Positions 3,240-16,746 of a DNA stretch of 64,000 nucleotides are shown piece after piece. The position numbers and the translations under genes are program-made. Source of the DNA: a virus (taxonomy: Duplodnaviria; Caudoviricetes); IMG/VR virus record IMGVR_UViG_3300037419_000894, positions 1 through 64,000 of that record; one strand, written 5' to 3'. Numbering within the stretch: the first letter of the stretch is position 1; every line of letters begins with the position of its first letter. The notes beneath the pieces were generated by a model. That model had not been told where the DNA came from. It worked only from the letters and a program-made list of their open reading frames with translations, and did not search any database.

Positions 3240-3242
3240 CGT

Positions 3243-3292
3243 AAAGTAATCTCCTGCCTTAGCGTGCTAGGGCAGTGGATGCACTTTGCATC
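3243..3292 (+). ncRNA. Junction pseudoknot motif copy E5
   Basis: AAAGT ... GATGC-[ACTTT]-GCATC; compensatory change relative to E1. Confidence 0.75.
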
Positions 3293-3311
3293 TCAACCTA
3301 AAGGAGCTATC

Positions 3312-3572
3312 ATGAAACTCGACGACAACCAAGTAGCAACCATTAGCCTTCAGGAACTGCACGACATCTTGGGCAACGGTGATCTTGGTATCACTGACCC
3401 AGCAACTGGCCAGCTCATGCTGCCTGCAGGATTCGAACTGGAGGTCATTGCTATGGACCCACAGACCGAAGGGAACATGAACAAGATCATGAACCGACTG
3501 AATGCTGTGCGCGACGAGCTCGCTAAACTTGACTCTGCGTTCCACGACGAGTTCGACGGCGCATACTGCTAG
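3312..3572 (+). CDS. Hypothetical acidic protein
   Basis: AAGGAG RBS before ATG 3312. Confidence 0.8.
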   Translation: MKLDDNQVATISLQELHDILGNGDLGITDPATGQLMLPAGFELEVIAMDPQTEGNMNKIMNRLNAVRDELAKLDSAFHDEFDGAYC

Positions 3573-3620
3573 AGTAATCTTACACCTCAGCGTGCTGGGG
3601 TGTTGGATGCACTTTGCATC
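3571..3620 (+). ncRNA. Junction pseudoknot motif copy E6
   Basis: AGAGT ... ACACCTCAG/CTGGGGTGT hairpin ... GATGC-[ACTTT]-GCATC. Confidence 0.75.
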
Positions 3621-3856: not shown

Positions 3857-4132
3857 ATGCCTATCGCAGAACGCCAAAAATCCGCAGAAGCTAAGCCCTT
3901 GGACCAAATGACTATCCGGGAGCTTGCACTCACCATCCGCAATGCGTGGCCCAAGCCATACTTCGGCGCCAAGCCTTACATCGAGGCGATGCTGACGCTC
4001 GAGAAACTGAGCGACATGTATTTCTACGACAGCGGCCGCGACATCGTCACGTATTTCCTCGCGAACGCAGGCACATGGCGCGGCGGCATTGCTCAGATGG
4101 TCAAGGCTGAGCTCAAGCGCCGCCTGAAGTAG
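3857..4132 (+). CDS. Hypothetical phage protein
   Basis: AAGGAG RBS; 91 aa. Confidence 0.85.
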   Translation: MPIAERQKSAEAKPLDQMTIRELALTIRNAWPKPYFGAKPYIEAMLTLEKLSDMYFYDSGRDIVTYFLANAGTWRGGIAQMVKAELKRRLK

Positions 4133-4133
4133 T

Positions 4134-4192
4134 AAGAGTAATCTACAAGCTCGTGACCACACATCGCGGGCTTGTGGGTGCGCTCTTGCACC
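4134..4192 (+). ncRNA. Junction pseudoknot motif copy E7
   Basis: AAGAGT ... hairpin 4145-4175 with ACCACAC in its loop ... GGTGC-[GCTCTT]-GCACC. Confidence 0.75.
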
Positions 4193-4213
4193 TCCACCCA
4201 CAAAGGAGAAACT

Positions 4214-4432
4214 ATGACTACTCATATTATCAAATGCGACGAACACGGCGACGCCACCCTCTACGGTGAACTTCTTATTTGCCGTTACCTTGCAGGCGAC
4301 TGCGACACGATCGACTTCAAGAACCCAAATATGACGAACTTGAAGCATGCCCTGTACGATCTCCGCGAATGCAGCGATAAGATCAAGTACAGCGACAATT
4401 TCTCGATCGACGGCGTCGTCTTTACTGTTTAA
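4214..4432 (+). CDS. Hypothetical protein
   Basis: AAGGAG RBS before ATG 4214. Confidence 0.8.
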   Translation: MTTHIIKCDEHGDATLYGELLICRYLAGDCDTIDFKNPNMTNLKHALYDLRECSDKIKYSDNFSIDGVVFTV

Positions 4433-4449
4433 CAACAAGGAGAATTAAA

Positions 4450-4878
4450 ATGAGCCACACTATCGATTACAGCGCCCTTGAAGGTGACGCAAAACGCGAA
4501 GCAGCCATGAAAGATATCAAATTCTGGCTGGGCGAGGACACATTCAAGCGGATGCAAGCAAGTGTCGTGGCGGAGTACAAAGACAAGCCTTTCAGTCTTG
4601 AAACCTTCCGCTTCAGCGCATCGTTTGCAGGTGTCCAAGGTTACCCGGTCCAGGCCTGGTTCGAGACCGTTGTGGCGGAGGCTAAGATGGTTGCTATCAA
4701 GGGCGTGCGCGCCGACGGCATTGAAGTCTGGTACACCGGCAAAGCGGATGCAGAGTGGATCTCTGTATTTTCGGACGACGCCTTCATGGGCTACAACCTC
4801 GAGGGCGCCAAACGCAAGGCTGAGATCTTGAATCACTCGAGCACCATGACCGGCATCACTTTCGCGCCAGACGTGTAA
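4450..4878 (+). CDS. Hypothetical protein
   Basis: AAGGAG RBS; 142 aa. Confidence 0.85.
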   Translation: MSHTIDYSALEGDAKREAAMKDIKFWLGEDTFKRMQASVVAEYKDKPFSLETFRFSASFAGVQGYPVQAWFETVVAEAKMVAIKGVRADGIEVWYTGKADAEWISVFSDDAFMGYNLEGAKRKAEILNHSSTMTGITFAPDV

Positions 4879-4925
4879 AGCTGCAATGAAAGCCTCCACG
4901 CGGGGCTTTCGTGGCAATTTTGCCA
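4877..4925 (+). ncRNA. Junction motif copy E8 (imperfect pseudoknot pairing)
   Basis: AAAGCT ... GAAAGCC/GGCTTTC hairpin ... TGGC-[AATTTT]-GCCA; one mismatch. Confidence 0.5.
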
Positions 4926-4946
4926 GTCCCACCTAAGGAGAATCAA

Positions 4947-5144
4947 ATGGCTGTACATATCTGGATGGATGAAACATCTGGAGAAATCTCGATCAGTGCT
5001 TTTGAACCTGAAAGCACATTCTACGAAGCAAACCACATCATCTTGGTTGAAGATCGTGGCGGGAAAGTGAACAAACACCCATCGGTGCTCAACATCCTGC
5101 AGAATGTGTTGGAGCAAGCAGGCGTTCAAGTTATTCGTGATTAA
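4947..5144 (+). CDS. Hypothetical protein
   Basis: AAGGAG RBS before ATG 4947. Confidence 0.8.
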   Translation: MAVHIWMDETSGEISISAFEPESTFYEANHIILVEDRGGKVNKHPSVLNILQNVLEQAGVQVIRD

Positions 5145-5164
5145 ATTTTAACAAGGAGAATCAA

Positions 5165-5626
5165 ATGAAACAGAAACAAATCTTAGCCGTTATCGGTGGC
5201 GTCACCTTCACGAGCCTGCCTATTGGCGAGAAAGAGGCGCAGCATGTCCTAGACAGCTTCAGCCGCGCAGCCCCAAATTGCGATCCGCAAATCGTCGATG
5301 CCCAACCCGTGACCACACCCATCCGGAATGAGGATGTCGCGGCTGCTGTAAAAGCCGGACTGAAGAGTTATGATCGAGAGCTCTTAGCTCGAGGCAACAA
5401 TCTCGACGTTCTGCCAGCGAATCTGCTCAAGAACCTTGTGGATTACTACGTTGAAATGGGCGCGGCTCGCGACGAAACGGCTGCTCGTGCACTGCTGCGC
5501 ACCGCCTCCTTCGACGGTCTGCTCCGGGCATTCTGTGCATGGAACGGATACGGCGTGAATCCTGGTTCCTTGGCTAGTGCTGTGCGCCAGCTGTACAAAG
5601 CTGTTCATGGCGATAGCGATTCTTAA
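5165..5626 (+). CDS. Hypothetical protein
   Basis: AAGGAG RBS; 153 aa. Confidence 0.85.
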   Translation: MKQKQILAVIGGVTFTSLPIGEKEAQHVLDSFSRAAPNCDPQIVDAQPVTTPIRNEDVAAAVKAGLKSYDRELLARGNNLDVLPANLLKNLVDYYVEMGAARDETAARALLRTASFDGLLRAFCAWNGYGVNPGSLASAVRQLYKAVHGDSDS

Positions 5627-5706
5627 TAAAAAGCGTCCGCCCGGTTGTTAAATCGCAAGCCCACCGGGCATTTTTGCTGTACAATGGAGTTTGTGTTGTG
5701 CAAAAG

Positions 5707-5766
5707 CCGCGCTGATGAGACCTAAAAGGTCGAAACTTCCAGCCCGAAGGGGTTGGAGGTCCGCGG
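5707..5766 (+). ncRNA. Hammerhead ribozyme, type I (HHR-1)
   Basis: Stem I CCGCG/CGCGG; CTGATGA 5712-5718; stem II GACC-TAAAA-GGTC; GAAA 5732-5735; 10-bp stem III; GTC cleavage triplet 5759-5761. Confidence 0.92.
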
Positions 5767-5804
5767 ATGTCCGCGAATAACCACACCACAGGAGTATTAC
5801 CATC

Positions 5805-6509
5805 ATGGCAACTGACAAACAAGCAGCTCGCGCAGGTCGTAACGTCAAAGCAGCCGACGCAGTCGTGGCAAACGGCACGAAAGCTGCCAAAGCCCCGCGC
5901 AAAGTCCCGGCTGGCACACTGTCCGAGAAGCCGAAAATGGCTGAACCGACCAATCCTCCGGTCGAAATCACGGAAGAGCAGCGCAAGGCTGACCGTCGCG
6001 CTGACGACATCACCAAGAACGACGCAATGGCCAGGTTCGTGGCACAGCAGACTGGCGAAACCAAGCCGAAAGTCGACATAGCTGCGTTCGAGGCTGAAAT
6101 GGCTGCGCTGAAAGCTAAGTACGGCGTCACCGCTGAAGTGAAGGTCAAGGCCTCGAAAGGTGATAAAATCGTCCAGAACGGCGTGACCAGGCCTGCAGCC
6201 AGCACCCTATGCGGTAAAATCTGGGCCGCAGCCGACCGCATCAGCCAGCGCATTCACAGCGTGGCGCCGATCGCACTGCTGCGCGAGGATCCGGAGCTGA
6301 AGGGTGTGAATGACCACACTATCAAGACGCAGTACGCGAAATGGCGTGCGTTCAACAACGTCTCGGGCCGGCTCCCGCGCATCCAGGCTGTGCACCAGCC
6401 GGCGGAAGGCATCTACAACGAAGCCCTCCCGCATATCGTGCAACCGCAGGCAACTGAGCCTGCCAAAAGCGAGGAGCAGCCGGCTAGCGACGCACCAGCA
6501 GCTGAATAA
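5805..6509 (+). CDS. Ala/Lys-rich protein with putative DNA-binding C-terminal domain (paralog family member 2)
   Basis: CAGGAG RBS; GVTRP...CGKIWAAAD...GVNDHTIKTQYAKWR. Confidence 0.85.
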   Translation: MATDKQAARAGRNVKAADAVVANGTKAAKAPRKVPAGTLSEKPKMAEPTNPPVEITEEQRKADRRADDITKNDAMARFVAQQTGETKPKVDIAAFEAEMAALKAKYGVTAEVKVKASKGDKIVQNGVTRPAASTLCGKIWAAADRISQRIHSVAPIALLREDPELKGVNDHTIKTQYAKWRAFNNVSGRLPRIQAVHQPAEGIYNEALPHIVQPQATEPAKSEEQPASDAPAAE

Positions 6510-6531
6510 GCCTTCGGACTTGGTCCACACA

Positions 6532-6553
6532 GGGAGCTTCGGCTCCCTTTTTT
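6532..6553 (+). terminator. Rho-independent terminator
   Basis: GGGAGC-TTCG-GCTCCC followed by T6. Confidence 0.9.
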
Positions 6554-6583
6554 ATTGACTGTAACCACACTCAGGAGTATTAC

Positions 6584-6844
6584 ATGTTCGAATTACAAAG
6601 CATTGAAATCGTCAATAGTGCTCTGGCTGAAATTGAACCTGCAATGTTGAAAGCGTGCCTTGCCAAGGTTGCCGACCAAATCGTGAACAGCGGCCTGCGC
6701 AATCGTGCAAGGATTGTGATCTCCAAGCGCACTTCAACAGGTTGGCTGGAATACCCGATCACAATCTTCAATGAGGACCATGTGGCAATATACATTGTAG
6801 CGATACAGCGCACGGTCGATAGCGAAGTTGAGTTTCATTCGTGA
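6584..6844 (+). CDS. Hypothetical protein
   Basis: CAGGAG RBS; 86 aa. Confidence 0.8.
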   Translation: MFELQSIEIVNSALAEIEPAMLKACLAKVADQIVNSGLRNRARIVISKRTSTGWLEYPITIFNEDHVAIYIVAIQRTVDSEVEFHS

Positions 6845-7290
6845 CCACACTCCTGCGGTGCGAATAGGTGCTGTTTGACCTGCTCGCGCTGAGGTTCTGG
6901 TGTTGTGAATTGCATCAATTCATACCCTGTGACAGAGGGTATGTGTGGGAGCAATTAAATACGGGTGGCTACCCTAGTCACCATGCGTTTCACCCTACTC
7001 CGACTAGGGGGGTGCTCATTTGCCCGATTTGTAGGCATCCGACTACCCTCCCCTTACTTTGCCTAAATACCGAGCAAAAATGGTGTTCCAATAGACAGAA
7101 TATGGTATAAATAAGTAATTAAGATTTTTGGTGCTCTGTATAGGGAAAAGTAGTAGTAAATAGTAGTAATGCAATAAAAACGTTAGTCTTTGAAATAAAT
7201 ACAGGAGTAGGTAGGGTTTACTTTTACCCCTCGCACCCCCAACCCGCGCAAAACTCCTAATGCAATGGTCCTACCCCAACATTTTAAATG

Positions 7291-7299
7291 TGCTACAAT
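7291..7299 (+). promoter_or_regulatory. Extended -10 promoter element
   Basis: TGcTACAAT about 30 nt upstream of ORF 7332. Confidence 0.5.
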
Positions 7300-7331
7300 A
7301 GGGGCTCCCATACTTTATTTAAAGGTGCCAA

Positions 7332-8150
7332 ATGCTACAGCTCACTACCCACGTCTCCCAAGAGACTGCCTTTCGTTTCGATTATTTTCCATACACCTTC
7401 GGACACTATTGCCCGATTCGTGTTTGGGTGGACTCCAAGACCGGTAAGGGCCAGCGCCTAGCGTACCGCACGTTCAACCCAATTGACCGTGAGTGGACCA
7501 AACCCAAGTTGTCCGCATACTTCGATCTGGTATTCCTGTTCGAAAAACATGGGTTCGTCACCGAGCAGCTAATCAGCTTCCAAAGCATGCCTCTCGACGA
7601 CCTTCTGCACATTGTCTCGCACTACTACGTAACGTCAGAGCAAAAGCAGCGCATCCAAGCCTACCTAGCAACCGTGGCCAATGTAGGCCGCACAAACTGG
7701 GCAAGTCCTACAGAGCATGCGCAACATCCTGGAGGTTACGAGGTACAAGAGTTATCCATCACAAACAGCGACCCGCTGCTCACAACCAGCTCGCACCTCA
7801 TTGTTCCTGAACCACCTGCGATTGAGCAAAAGCAACTCGGGCGCCCGCCTAGCAAAAACTTGTGGAACGCGCCAAAGGTAGTGGAAGCCACACCAGACAC
7901 AAGTGTGGTCAACGCTCCCAAGCCTTGGTTGCGCGGTCCTCAGCAGCCTGCAATGTCTCAAGCAGCTACAACGTCCCTGCAAAAGCTCATTGATCAAATA
8001 CACGATCATACAGCACTGTTACTTAAGCGCGGAGACGAGCGTGACGAGTATTACATCAATCGAGGTCGTCAAAACCCGGACAACTTCAAGAGCGAAACAC
8101 AAGTGCGCAATTACGCCGCAGTTCTAGGCATCACACTCATCGAAGATTAA
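7332..8150 (+). CDS. Hypothetical protein with Pro-rich linker
   Basis: 272-aa ORF, AAGGT RBS. Confidence 0.8.
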   Translation: MLQLTTHVSQETAFRFDYFPYTFGHYCPIRVWVDSKTGKGQRLAYRTFNPIDREWTKPKLSAYFDLVFLFEKHGFVTEQLISFQSMPLDDLLHIVSHYYVTSEQKQRIQAYLATVANVGRTNWASPTEHAQHPGGYEVQELSITNSDPLLTTSSHLIVPEPPAIEQKQLGRPPSKNLWNAPKVVEATPDTSVVNAPKPWLRGPQQPAMSQAATTSLQKLIDQIHDHTALLLKRGDERDEYYINRGRQNPDNFKSETQVRNYAAVLGITLIED

Positions 8151-8174
8151 CCACACAACCCGAAAGGAACCATC

Positions 8175-13740: not shown

Positions 13741-14001
13741 ATGACTAAAGTATCTGAAAAACGGCCCAACGGCCCGTTCGACCTGCGCATCAGCGAGCGG
13801 CAGCGTAAGCTGCTGGTGCGTGCGCTCACCGAAGGTTTGTCGGACGACTTCGTCCTGACACTCATGTCCGAGAACGCGCAGAGTGTGGTCATGGGCAACA
13901 ATCTCCAACAACTCCAAGAGTTGACCAGCATGCTCAGCACCCTTCCCGACAACAATGTAGCGGGCATGCTGCACGCTCTTTTGCATGCGAGCGAACGATG
14001 A
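13741..14001 (+). CDS. Hypothetical protein, probable paralog of 2982-3239
   Basis: AAGGA RBS; ISERQRKLL...MLSTLP...GMLH. Confidence 0.75.
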   Translation: MTKVSEKRPNGPFDLRISERQRKLLVRALTEGLSDDFVLTLMSENAQSVVMGNNLQQLQELTSMLSTLPDNNVAGMLHALLHASER

Positions 14002-14288
14002 CCACACAACAGCGCACAATCAAGACGGTTTACCGTTTTCAAGGCGAAGAGACCAAGGTGACCACAGCCTGCAATCCCAACCGCGCTGTCGCTAAATGCG
14101 TCGAGCACTTGCAAGTGAATGACTACGGCGCAACGGTTGCCGAGGTCTACGATCGCGAAAGCGGGGTTTTGCACGCCATTGTCAAGCGTAGCATTAACGG
14201 TAGCATTAACATTGCCTACCGTTACAACCCTGAAGACTTCAAACCCATGCGTCTGTCTCTCGGCGCACTGCTGGAGGAAAAGAAATGA
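13998..14288 (+). CDS. Hypothetical protein
   Basis: ATGA overlap; 96 aa. Confidence 0.75.
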   Translation: MTTQQRTIKTVYRFQGEETKVTTACNPNRAVAKCVEHLQVNDYGATVAEVYDRESGVLHAIVKRSINGSINIAYRYNPEDFKPMRLSLGALLEEKK

Positions 14289-14622: not shown

Positions 14623-16077
14623 ATGTCAAGAACTTGGTCACCCTATCAACAAACCATCTTTGCTTTCGTTGCTGAAGCGAATGCTGGTAACGCAATCGTG
14701 AACGCAGTTGCTGGTTCTGGTAAATCTACAACTATTGTCGAAGCCTGTAACCACATCCCGTCCGGGCAAACGCACCTCATGCTCGCGTTCAACAAGTCGA
14801 TCGCAGAGGAGCTGAAGGAACGCGGCGTCAACGCTCGCACCTTCCACTCGCTGACGTACACGCCTGTGACGCGTGCTAAAGGCACGTCGTCGGTGGATTC
14901 GAACAAGCTGCGCACCATCTGCAAGATGAAGATGCCCAGCAAGGACGAATTCTTGTACGCCAACTTCTGCTGCCGGCTGGTTGGCATCGTGCGCCAAATG
15001 GGTATCGGGTTTCTATGCCCGGATGAGCGCTGGGTGTACGAAGACGTCATCGATCACCACATGCTCGAACTGGACAGCGAGAATGCTGAACTGGACGTGG
15101 CAATCGACTACGCCCAAAAGCTGCTCACATGGTCCAACGCTAGCCCGGTGGTCGATTTTGACGATCTGCTGTACCTCGCAGTGAAAGACAATATTGCGCT
15201 GCCGAAGTACGACTTCATCTTCGTTGACGAAGCCCAGGACACCAACGCTATCCAGCGTGAAATCCTGCGCAAGATCATGAAACCAACCTCGCGCATCATT
15301 GCAGTGGGCGACCCGGCACAAGCAATCTACGGCTTCCGCGGCGCCGACAGCAACTCGCTCAAGCGCATTGAAGACCAGTTCGGTGCAACCAACCTGCCGC
15401 TGACCGTTTCGTATCGCTGCGGCACCGAGATCGTCAAGTACGCTCAGCAGTGGGTGCAGCACATTGAACCCGCGCCGGGTGCTCCGGCAGGTGTGGTCAA
15501 CGATCTCAACAAGGACTGGAACACTGGCATGTTCCAGTCGGACGACCTTATCGTCTGCCGTACAACGAAGCCACTGGTCGCGCTGGCGTACAGGCTGCTG
15601 CGCGATCGCATCCCAGCGAAAATTATGGGGCGCGACATTGGTGCGGGTCTGATCTCACTCATCAAGCGTCAGAAAGCTACCAGCATTGATCAGCTGATCG
15701 AACGCGTTAGCAACTGGGCAGCGCGTGAAGCGGATGCAGCATTGCTGCAAGGTAAGGAGTCCAAAGCGCAGGCGCAACAGGACAAGGCTGACGCTATTAT
15801 CGTGCTGTGCGAAACCCTGCCGGAGCACGAGCGCACGGTCGAACATCTGGTGGAGGTCATCAACAACCTGTTCACCGACCGCGCGAGCAACTGCCTCACC
15901 CTTGCCACTATCCACAAGGCTAAGGGCATGGAAGCTGACCGCGTGTGGTGGCTCAACCGCCGGCAGTGCCCTGCAAAATGGGCCAAGAAAGACTGGATGC
16001 AAGAGCAGGAACGAAACCTTTGCTATGTCGCCACGACGCGAGCAAAATCTGAACTCAACCTTATTGAGGAGCGTTAA
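14623..16077 (+). CDS. UvrD/Rep-like SF1 helicase
   Basis: AVAGSGKST, FVDEAQD, VGDPAQAIYGFRG, TIHKAKGME, YVATTRAK. Confidence 0.95.
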   Translation: MSRTWSPYQQTIFAFVAEANAGNAIVNAVAGSGKSTTIVEACNHIPSGQTHLMLAFNKSIAEELKERGVNARTFHSLTYTPVTRAKGTSSVDSNKLRTICKMKMPSKDEFLYANFCCRLVGIVRQMGIGFLCPDERWVYEDVIDHHMLELDSENAELDVAIDYAQKLLTWSNASPVVDFDDLLYLAVKDNIALPKYDFIFVDEAQDTNAIQREILRKIMKPTSRIIAVGDPAQAIYGFRGADSNSLKRIEDQFGATNLPLTVSYRCGTEIVKYAQQWVQHIEPAPGAPAGVVNDLNKDWNTGMFQSDDLIVCRTTKPLVALAYRLLRDRIPAKIMGRDIGAGLISLIKRQKATSIDQLIERVSNWAAREADAALLQGKESKAQAQQDKADAIIVLCETLPEHERTVEHLVEVINNLFTDRASNCLTLATIHKAKGMEADRVWWLNRRQCPAKWAKKDWMQEQERNLCYVATTRAKSELNLIEER

Positions 16078-16078
16078 A

Positions 16079-16282
16079 ATGCAATCATTAAAGAGCCCGA
16101 CTCACGAACAACTGATTCAAGCTCACACCGACATTGTAAGCGTTGACGAGAATGTCGAAATTGTCGTGGACAAAATCGGTCACGTTGTGTGGGTGAACAT
16201 CGCGGGCGCGTGCGTCCTACGTGTTCACGGCGCAAGGAATGTGGTCATCAAGGACGAACGCAACAAAAAACCAGCCAACTGA
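16079..16282 (+). CDS. Small hypothetical protein
   Basis: GAGGAG RBS; its TGA stop lies inside the HHR-2 core. Confidence 0.75.
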   Translation: MQSLKSPTHEQLIQAHTDIVSVDENVEIVVDKIGHVVWVNIAGACVLRVHGARNVVIKDERNKKPAN

Positions 16283-16335
16283 AGAGCTCTCGGTCTAATA
16301 TGAGCGAAACGCCCAGAACATCGGGCGTCTTGGTT
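16273..16335 (+). ncRNA. Hammerhead ribozyme, type I (HHR-2)
   Basis: Stem I AGCCAA/TTGGTT; CTGAAGA 16279-16285; stem II GCTC/GAGC; GAAA 16306-16309; stem III CGCCC/GGGCG; GTC 16327-16329. Confidence 0.9.
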
Positions 16336-16359: not shown

Positions 16360-16746
16360 ATGGCTGCAATCAACAATCGAGATTTGAACTTTATTCTGAC
16401 CACTGTCATTGAAGGTGGTAGCGCCTACTGGGCGAATGATAGTGATGTGTGTCAAACTGTTGAAATCAAACGTGAAGCAGACTCTGATGAAGATTTGCGC
16501 TCATTGAAGTTGGTTAGTGAGATCAAAATAACCACAGACGTCGATGGCAAAGGTTGGAAAACTCAGACCATTACTGCAACTGAAATGCGCAAGGCGCTGA
16601 AAGCAATGAAGGAAGATCAGAAATTGCCTGAGCATCTGCGCAAAATGGCTCGTAAGCTTCTGAATAATGGCGACGAAGATTACGATGCTGGCGACGCTGA
16701 CGTGATCTTTCAATACGCTCTGTTTGGTGAAATCGTGTTTGGTTAA
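16360..16746 (+). CDS. Hypothetical phage protein
   Basis: AAGGAG RBS; EGGSAYWA...DAGDADVIFQYALFGEIVFG. Confidence 0.85.
   Translation: MAAINNRDLNFILTTVIEGGSAYWANDSDVCQTVEIKREADSDEDLRSLKLVSEIKITTDVDGKGWKTQTITATEMRKALKAMKEDQKLPEHLRKMARKLLNNGDEDYDAGDADVIFQYALFGEIVFG

Follow-up and report, generated by a model that had tools for sequence, protein, structure and literature searches.

A type I hammerhead ribozyme with every part present was read from the sequence at positions 5707-5766 (+), upstream of a phage gene (5805-6509), and a copy of one of its own stem I strands begins 4 nt past stem I. The window analyzed here comprises bases 1-64000 of a 74,241-bp virus genome rated complete. Judged from its sequence, the element is very probably an active hammerhead. 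The 3' product of its predicted cleavage would begin with a hairpin, CGCGG-AUGU-CCGCG, which opens at nucleotide 1 and has a predicted free energy of -8.5 kcal/mol, in line with what the first-pass annotation of this DNA had proposed for the cleaved message.

Architecture and detection of the hammerhead

Stem I is formed by CCGCG at 5707-5711 (strand A) and CGCGG at 5762-5766 (strand B), the five nucleotides with which the predicted mRNA product begins. Between these strands, all in + orientation, lie the core segment C3-A9 (CUGAUGA, 5712-5718), in which C3 U4 G5 A6 N7 G8 A9 are all present; stem II (GACC/GGUC, 5719-5731), with loop UAAAA and the closing pair G10.1-C11.1 (G5719-C5731); the core residues G12 A13 A14 followed by A15.1 (GAAA, 5732-5735); and stem III (5735-5760), which includes the A15.1-U16.1 pair (A5735-U5760) and two G-U pairs and is capped by loop GAAG. 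The three helices measure 5 (stem I), 4-5 (stem II) and 11 bp (stem III) and show no mispair next to the core. Position 17 is the non-G residue C5761, and the hammerhead architecture places the predicted self-cleavage between 5761 and 5762. All the conserved core nucleotides and the three stems claimed earlier were recovered, with every coordinate correct. Cleavage by this ribozyme class generates a 2',3'-cyclic phosphate, here predicted on 5761, and a 5'-OH, here predicted on 5762. Immediately past stem I, loop AUGU (5767-5770, +) leads into CCGCG (5771-5775, +), which repeats strand A, can pair with B and is referred to below as A'. No convincing stem I partner was seen for loop II (UAAAA), and the outer helix predicted in the window is absent from the orthologous element of contig L130. 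A type III reading of 5686-5739 was discarded, since it overlaps the type I element and is weaker.

When the whole 74-kb genome was scanned with a descriptor, in all three circular permutations, it yielded two elements only, 5707-5766 and 16273-16335. Random Markov genomes of the same composition yielded 0.42 descriptor matches on average, a chance figure that applies to minimal 3-bp stems, those of the observed element being 5/5/11. Rfam searches at gathering thresholds returned nothing in the window. At relaxed thresholds, full-length alignments were obtained to RAGATH-1-hammerhead (RF03152; 35.3 bits vs a gathering score of 56.3) and to Hammerhead_HH9 (RF02275; 19.9 bits vs 52). Since the element scores below both gathering values and has the defining features, we place it in the hammerhead class, outside those two curated subfamilies; neither the upstream hairpin of RAGATH-1 nor the extended stem I of HH9 has a counterpart in 5707-5766. 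It does fit a group defined here by a GACC-N5-GGUC stem II, having an open stem I and closed stems II and III and lying, as the group definition asks, 10-45 nt ahead of an RBS and start codon. A custom covariance model (R1), built from 71 phage type I hammerheads with 5707-5766 included in the training set, scored this element at 46.1 bits and found exactly two matches in this genome, at 46 bits each, both of them training-set members. Megablast of 4000-8000 against cultured phages gave no match.

The second element (16273-16335, +) is a type I hammerhead of the form AGCCAA-CUGAAGA-GCUC..GAGC-GAAA-CGCCC..GGGCG-UC-UUGGUU, located ~30 nt ahead of an ATG at 16360; the TGA of ORF 15725-16282 sits inside its core. 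Contig L121 carries an ortholog at 2186-2241, located downstream of the gene for a helicase of 75% identity; this copy differs at N7 and in stem II, where the changes are compensatory. The refolding hairpin is missing from both 16273-16335 and this ortholog.

Conservation of the ribozyme and of its association with genes

The contigs L130-L135 carry an orthologous hammerhead cassette upstream of a 67%-identical protein. The L130 hammerhead has an identical stem I, a C3-A9 segment (CUGAAGA) whose sole change falls on the free position N7, and UUAAA as loop II. Its stem III is entirely unrelated in sequence to that of the window, yet fully paired over 8 bp, and the retention of pairing and core in so divergent a sequence is strong evidence of selection on the RNA fold. 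Stems I-III also covary in a 71-sequence alignment (A2). In terms of sequence conservation, the compensatory stem III changes of L130 indicate that the hammerhead is selectively maintained.

In four other phage contigs, type I hammerheads likewise precede or bracket more distant members of the 5805 family, from which we conclude that the association between ribozyme and gene is old. Two uncultured relatives, L137 (683-1777) and L141 (566-1646), have one hammerhead on either side of the 5805-family gene, and the one that follows the gene begins 1-2 nt past the stop codon. Model R1 detected no hammerhead in the genomes of the cultured relatives PaMx25 and yong3. When IMG/VR was scanned for the core together with the stem II of 5707-5766, more than 119 loci came up, and 114 of 133 matches form complete type I hammerheads. 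In these 114, stem I is usually 6 bp long; several often occur per contig, and their 3' ends usually lie 10-30 nt ahead of an RBS and start codon.

Hammerhead arrays were also observed, with up to 10 copies within 6 kb of one contig (L039, 2292-8607; also L002, L097 and L063). Nearly all arrayed copies share one stem I (e.g. GUAAUA/UAUUAC) and vary in stems II and III; with stem I common to the array, each processed mRNA of such a phage would open with the same hexamer.

Gene 5805-6509 and its flanking signals

The ORF at 5805-6509 (+) encodes a protein of 234 aa with a conserved C-terminal motif, whose only PHROG matches are 11298 and 18634, both families of unknown function, and which has no Pfam match. 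It has 52 homologs in a large protein collection; a single-protein search of IMG/VR returned no relatives, and those described here were found only via the protein database and an alignment. As to the earlier description of the gene as a paralog, a short shared C-terminal motif speaks for it and nothing beyond that motif does.

The Shine-Dalgarno (SD) sequence AGGAG (5790-5794, +) and the start codon ATG (5805-5807) are predicted to be unstructured in the cleaved product. On the upstream side, the stop of ORF 5165-5626 is followed by a terminator-like hairpin (5639-5676, +) in which GCCCGGU (5639-5645) pairs with ACCGGGC (5664-5670) across a large loop, ahead of a U-run; the terminator scan missed it because the loop exceeds 8 nt, and both hairpin and T-run are kept in L130. 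The -10-like box TACAAT that had been reported at 5680 is indeed present (5680-5685, +), 21 nt upstream of the hammerhead. It is conserved as TAATAT in L130 and TACAAT in L146, with GGA next in each. A sigma-70 scan detected no full promoter at TACAAT and no -35, and the box may act as a promoter element. Past the gene, the terminator scan and folding identified an intrinsic terminator (6531-6558, +) with a 7-bp GC-rich stem, a UUCG loop and a U-run. The terminator-like hairpin, the conserved -10-like box and this terminator suggest a single-gene unit, and within it they suggest a role of the ribozyme in 5'-end remodelling rather than in cistron separation.

The cultured relatives are Queuovirinae of Pseudomonas, Variovorax and others, with a helicase about 56% identical. 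In the Pseudomonas phage PaMx25 (L280) and the Hafnia phage yong3 (L281), the 5805 homolog lies immediately upstream of queE/queC, which are 7-deazaguanine DNA modification genes, and annotated terminators follow the homolog.

Several further elements of the region were recorded. A 104-codon ORF (5767-6081, +) begins at the AUG of the hairpin loop and is out of frame with gene 5805; the equivalent loop AUG of L130 is in frame with the gene, and AUG-containing loops (AUGU, AUGUA, AUGA, AUGUG) recur in several lineages. An upstream ORF starting at this AUG was rejected, as its frame differs between the window and L130. The motif A(U/A)(A/G)ACCACAC(A/C)AC occurs at 5777-5791, 2982-2996, 8148-8160 and 13998-14012 (+), at or just upstream of several early-gene starts, and could be a leader element of the translational enhancer kind. 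The recurrence of another motif, TTTT-N3-GTA-N2-ATGG, in the window was not above chance. A repeated intergenic element of ~50 nt (1873-1924, 2705-2753, 3242-3293 and 3570-3620, +) folds into two hairpins, the second GUGCGC-UUUU-GCAC-like and the first with a stem sequence that varies by copy; it had no Rfam match at the thresholds used and may be a further signal for RNA processing or regulation in the early region.

A second partner for the stem I 3' strand

The proposal that CGCGG has a second partner in CCGCG at 5771-5775 gained support on three counts, as A' is retained in L130, covaries with stem I and is enriched across phage hammerheads. None of 200 shuffles of the downstream flank gave an equally good hairpin with the stem I 3' strand. 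L130 keeps the B:A' hairpin with a 5-nt loop, one base longer; since its stem I and A' sequences are those of the window, this pair alone provides no covariation. Matched triples of differing sequence were found in related hammerheads, namely CCACA/UGUGG followed by AUGUA-CCAC, UCCACU/AGUGGA followed by UGA-CCAC, ACCACA/UGUGGU followed by AAUCCA-ACCAC, and UUCACA/UGUGAA followed by AUUU-UUCAC. These triples sit immediately upstream of, or flank, 5805-family homologs in other phage contigs, and A' covaries with stem I in L137, L146 and L149. In a set of IMG/VR hammerheads selected by nothing but the core and a CACA/UGUG stem I, UGUGG hammerheads very often have CCAC(A) 4-7 nt downstream, set in about a dozen unrelated loop sequences, and UGUGUC hammerheads have plain AAAC tails. 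Other CGCG-type hammerheads also lock B in a 5'-terminal hairpin, through different partners.

We then grouped 275 unique hammerheads into 144 similarity clusters and scored each representative by the energy gained when B is added to the next 18 nt, bearing in mind that the hammerhead sample is biased by the search patterns. A B-dependent gain of at least 4 kcal/mol was reached by 24 of the 144 representatives, compared with 9.7 +/- 2.8 upon shuffling of the flanks (maximum 17 in 300 trials) and 4.2 +/- 1.8 when flanks were swapped between stem-I types. All 24 strong hairpins start at product position +1 or +2, and in these cases A, B and A' vary in concert at positions +2 to +5. In a conservative test with one draw per stem type, p<0.05 was reached by 7 of the 63 types, a result of modest significance (binomial P=0.037). 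The excess over shuffled flanks was evident with energy-weighted criteria only and disappeared under a lax criterion (at least 4 bp, one G-U allowed). A Wilcoxon test over all stem-I types was not significant because most A/U-rich types lack the hairpin. The hairpin of the window has the largest B-dependent gain among all stem-I types and is unsurpassed in stability among simple hairpins starting at +1 and using B alone. Taken together, these data make it probable that A' is under selection.

A different arrangement was noted in some A/U-richer hammerheads (L003, L033 and L091; L016, L071, L102 and relatives), whose stem I 3' strand can pair between the SD and the AUG (UAUAGC ... GGAGG-CUAUA is one example), so that the Shine-Dalgarno comes to lie in the loop of a 5'-terminal hairpin.

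Energetics of the competing folds

Nearest-neighbor energies agree with the earlier suggestion that the hairpin could compete with ribozyme folding. For the uncleaved RNA, the hairpin fold was predicted at -32.9 kcal/mol vs -30.9 for the ribozyme fold, and in the ensemble the alternative fold reached a probability of 0.95-0.97, with stem I at about 0.03. The hairpin lies 2-5 kcal/mol below the ribozyme fold in uncleaved RNA and is likewise favored in the four to five orthologous or related elements that were folded. These figures come from nearest-neighbor models, which leave out the hammerhead core and its tertiary contacts. In a series of transcripts of increasing length from the putative start site, the ribozyme fold was the minimum-free-energy (MFE) structure for 3' ends at 5766-5773 and was replaced by the hairpin from 5774 onward, so that in these models the ribozyme fold would win only in a short co-transcriptional window. 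In the folded product, the hairpin occupies +1 to +14 and the centroid leaves SD and AUG unpaired. An outer helix between 5690-5700 and 5782-5792 that would mask the SD in the MFE structure was rejected because neither L130 nor other relatives reproduce it.

Proposed function and alternative explanations

From the observed anatomy, the compensatory changes of the hammerhead and the conservation and covariation of A', we infer the following course of events, from cleavage through the order of folding to the fate of the message. The early gene 5805-6509 would have the hammerhead in its 5' leader. During transcription, A (5707-5711) would pair with B (5762-5766), and the ribozyme would fold and cut after C5761. 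A' (5771-5775) would then take B into a 5-bp hairpin at mRNA nucleotide 1. This switch of B from A to A' would free the ribozyme fragment of roughly 70 nt and block religation, rendering cleavage irreversible. The resulting message would have a base-paired 5'-OH end, no unpaired 5' nucleotide and a free RBS. Both 5'-OH ends and 5' stem-loops slow 5'-end-dependent decay by RNase E, and the hosts of the nearest cultured relatives, Pseudomonas and Variovorax, are RNase E hosts. In a proteobacterial host, such a 5' end should therefore be a poor entry site for RNase E, with slower 5'-end-dependent decay. Overall, the element would yield a defined mRNA that does not depend on its context and probably lives longer, and it would be the natural equivalent of engineered ribozyme insulators. 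An insulator that produces a stabilized mRNA, as the first-pass annotation had it, is thus plausible, and we regard product refolding with end protection as an evenly balanced proposition. Against a refolding role, the models predict a hairpin that, short of compensating tertiary contacts, would for the most part inhibit cleavage and not follow it; moreover, a 5-bp stem I should dissociate quickly alone, so that an aid to release is not obviously needed.

These same energies are the basis of the main rival explanation, in which the hairpin acts mainly as an attenuator or switch: A' would sequester B and hold the ribozyme off, cleavage would be brief and co-transcriptional or conditional on hairpin opening, and the ratio of cleaved to uncleaved RNA would be set in this way. 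Such a role accords with the preference of both MFE and ensemble for the hairpin in uncleaved RNA (-32.9 vs -30.9 kcal/mol, alternative fold at about 0.96), with its recurrence in orthologous and related elements, and with the dominance of the ribozyme fold only at transcript ends 5766-5773; viroid-like RNAs offer known cases of hammerhead cleavage under the control of alternative folds. However, the omission of core and tertiary contacts from the nearest-neighbor models weakens the energetic argument, a hairpin that did nothing but inhibit would have no need to start exactly at +1 or +2, where all 24 strong hairpins do, and no candidate trigger is evident. The data fit the attenuating role about as well as the stabilizing one, and the two are not mutually exclusive; that the hairpin serves mainly to attenuate nonetheless appears rather unlikely to us.

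The matched A' sequences argue against the idea that the downstream CCGCG is a chance or hitch-hiking repeat and that the hammerhead alone matters, as an ordinary phage mRNA-processing site. The repeat is just 5 nt long in a G+C-rich context, it shows no covariation between the window and L130, and the lax-criterion test was not significant, all of which would fit coincidence. Yet no flank shuffle equaled it in 200 attempts, matched A' strands stand beside differing stem I sequences in related hammerheads, CCAC is kept beside highly divergent loops, and there is enrichment at the level of clusters; we thus deem a chance repeat improbable. It is even harder to credit that the element is an inactive relic, or that another feature is conserved, either a short uORF at AUG 5767 or the target-site duplication of a mobile hammerhead. 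ORF 5767-6081 does exist, AUG recurs in several of the hairpin loops, and A and A' are direct repeats. A relic, however, should not have all core positions intact and compensatory substitutions in stem III; the AUG is out of frame in the window and in frame in L130, and hence there is no conserved reading frame; and a target-site duplication would not account for an internal strand B that is always complementary to the repeat. This whole set of options is accordingly very improbable.

Returning to product refolding, we tentatively extend it, at somewhat below even confidence, to those phage type I hammerheads whose stem I contains G/C, a sizeable subset. These would be three-strand A/B/A' devices that couple cleavage to 5'-end refolding, that is, natural and evolutionarily tuned insulators that set the irreversibility of processing and the stability of early messages. 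The absence of the hairpin from 16273-16335, from its ortholog and from most A/U-rich phage hammerheads counts against the refolding reading. The conserved, covarying A/B/A' arrangement offers a mutable handle on what bacterial and phage hammerheads, which number in the thousands, do for their carriers: whether they exist to shape mRNA 5' ends, and which step, be it cleavage, release or decay, is controlled by refolding. The arrangement would, in addition, provide natural design rules and many ready-made parts for the ribozyme insulators of synthetic biology. If the hairpin proved neutral, the element would be one more phage hammerhead.

Comparison with known systems

That phage hammerheads lie before or flank genes is already known. 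In the portion of their paper considered here, Perreault et al. 2011 (PMC3088659) describe phage and prophage hammerheads flanking genes and propose that they process long transcripts to gene-length mRNAs, a picture with which the IMG/VR hammerheads above agree. The element at 5707-5766 resembles the phage and prophage type I hammerheads in that portion of the paper in its core, its three-stem layout, the presence of more than one copy per phage, and its intergenic location on the coding strand just before a gene. It differs from the common phage type I hammerhead, with its 6-bp, A/U-rich stem I, in that stem I is here 5 bp long and G+C-rich, and a copy of the hammerhead's own stem I 5' strand placed after it is not described in the same portion of Perreault et al. 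2011 (PMC3088659). A literature search of incomplete coverage, in which absence is not proof, found neither the three-strand arrangement nor the refolding hairpin in natural phage hammerheads.

The closest engineered system is RiboJ, a hammerhead joined to a hairpin, whose uncleaved mRNA is reported to decay faster (PMC7536230). As in RiboJ, a hammerhead in the 5' leader would be followed by a hairpin and then the RBS, and cleavage would standardize the 5' end; the predicted fold has the hairpin directly after the cleavage site and leaves the RBS accessible. RiboJ derives from a plant satellite ribozyme, and its 23-nt hairpin is a separate element that does not reuse a stem I strand, whereas hairpin and stem I are here mutually exclusive.

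5'-terminal stem-loops stabilize bacterial mRNAs, as exemplified by the ompA leader, and an end with no unpaired 5' nucleotide hinders RNase E. The predicted product hairpin would resemble ompA-type leaders in having no unpaired 5' nucleotide, but differs from them in that the end would be made by self-cleavage, would carry a 5'-OH and would be closed by a stem of just 5 bp. Finally, as in the hammerheads of viroid-like RNAs, the competing helix uses a strand of a hammerhead stem. Viroid-like folds serve the rolling-circle replication of circular RNAs, whereas the present element belongs to the mRNA leader of a DNA phage, and here, unlike in those folds, the competitor lies on the product side and adjoins the cleavage site.
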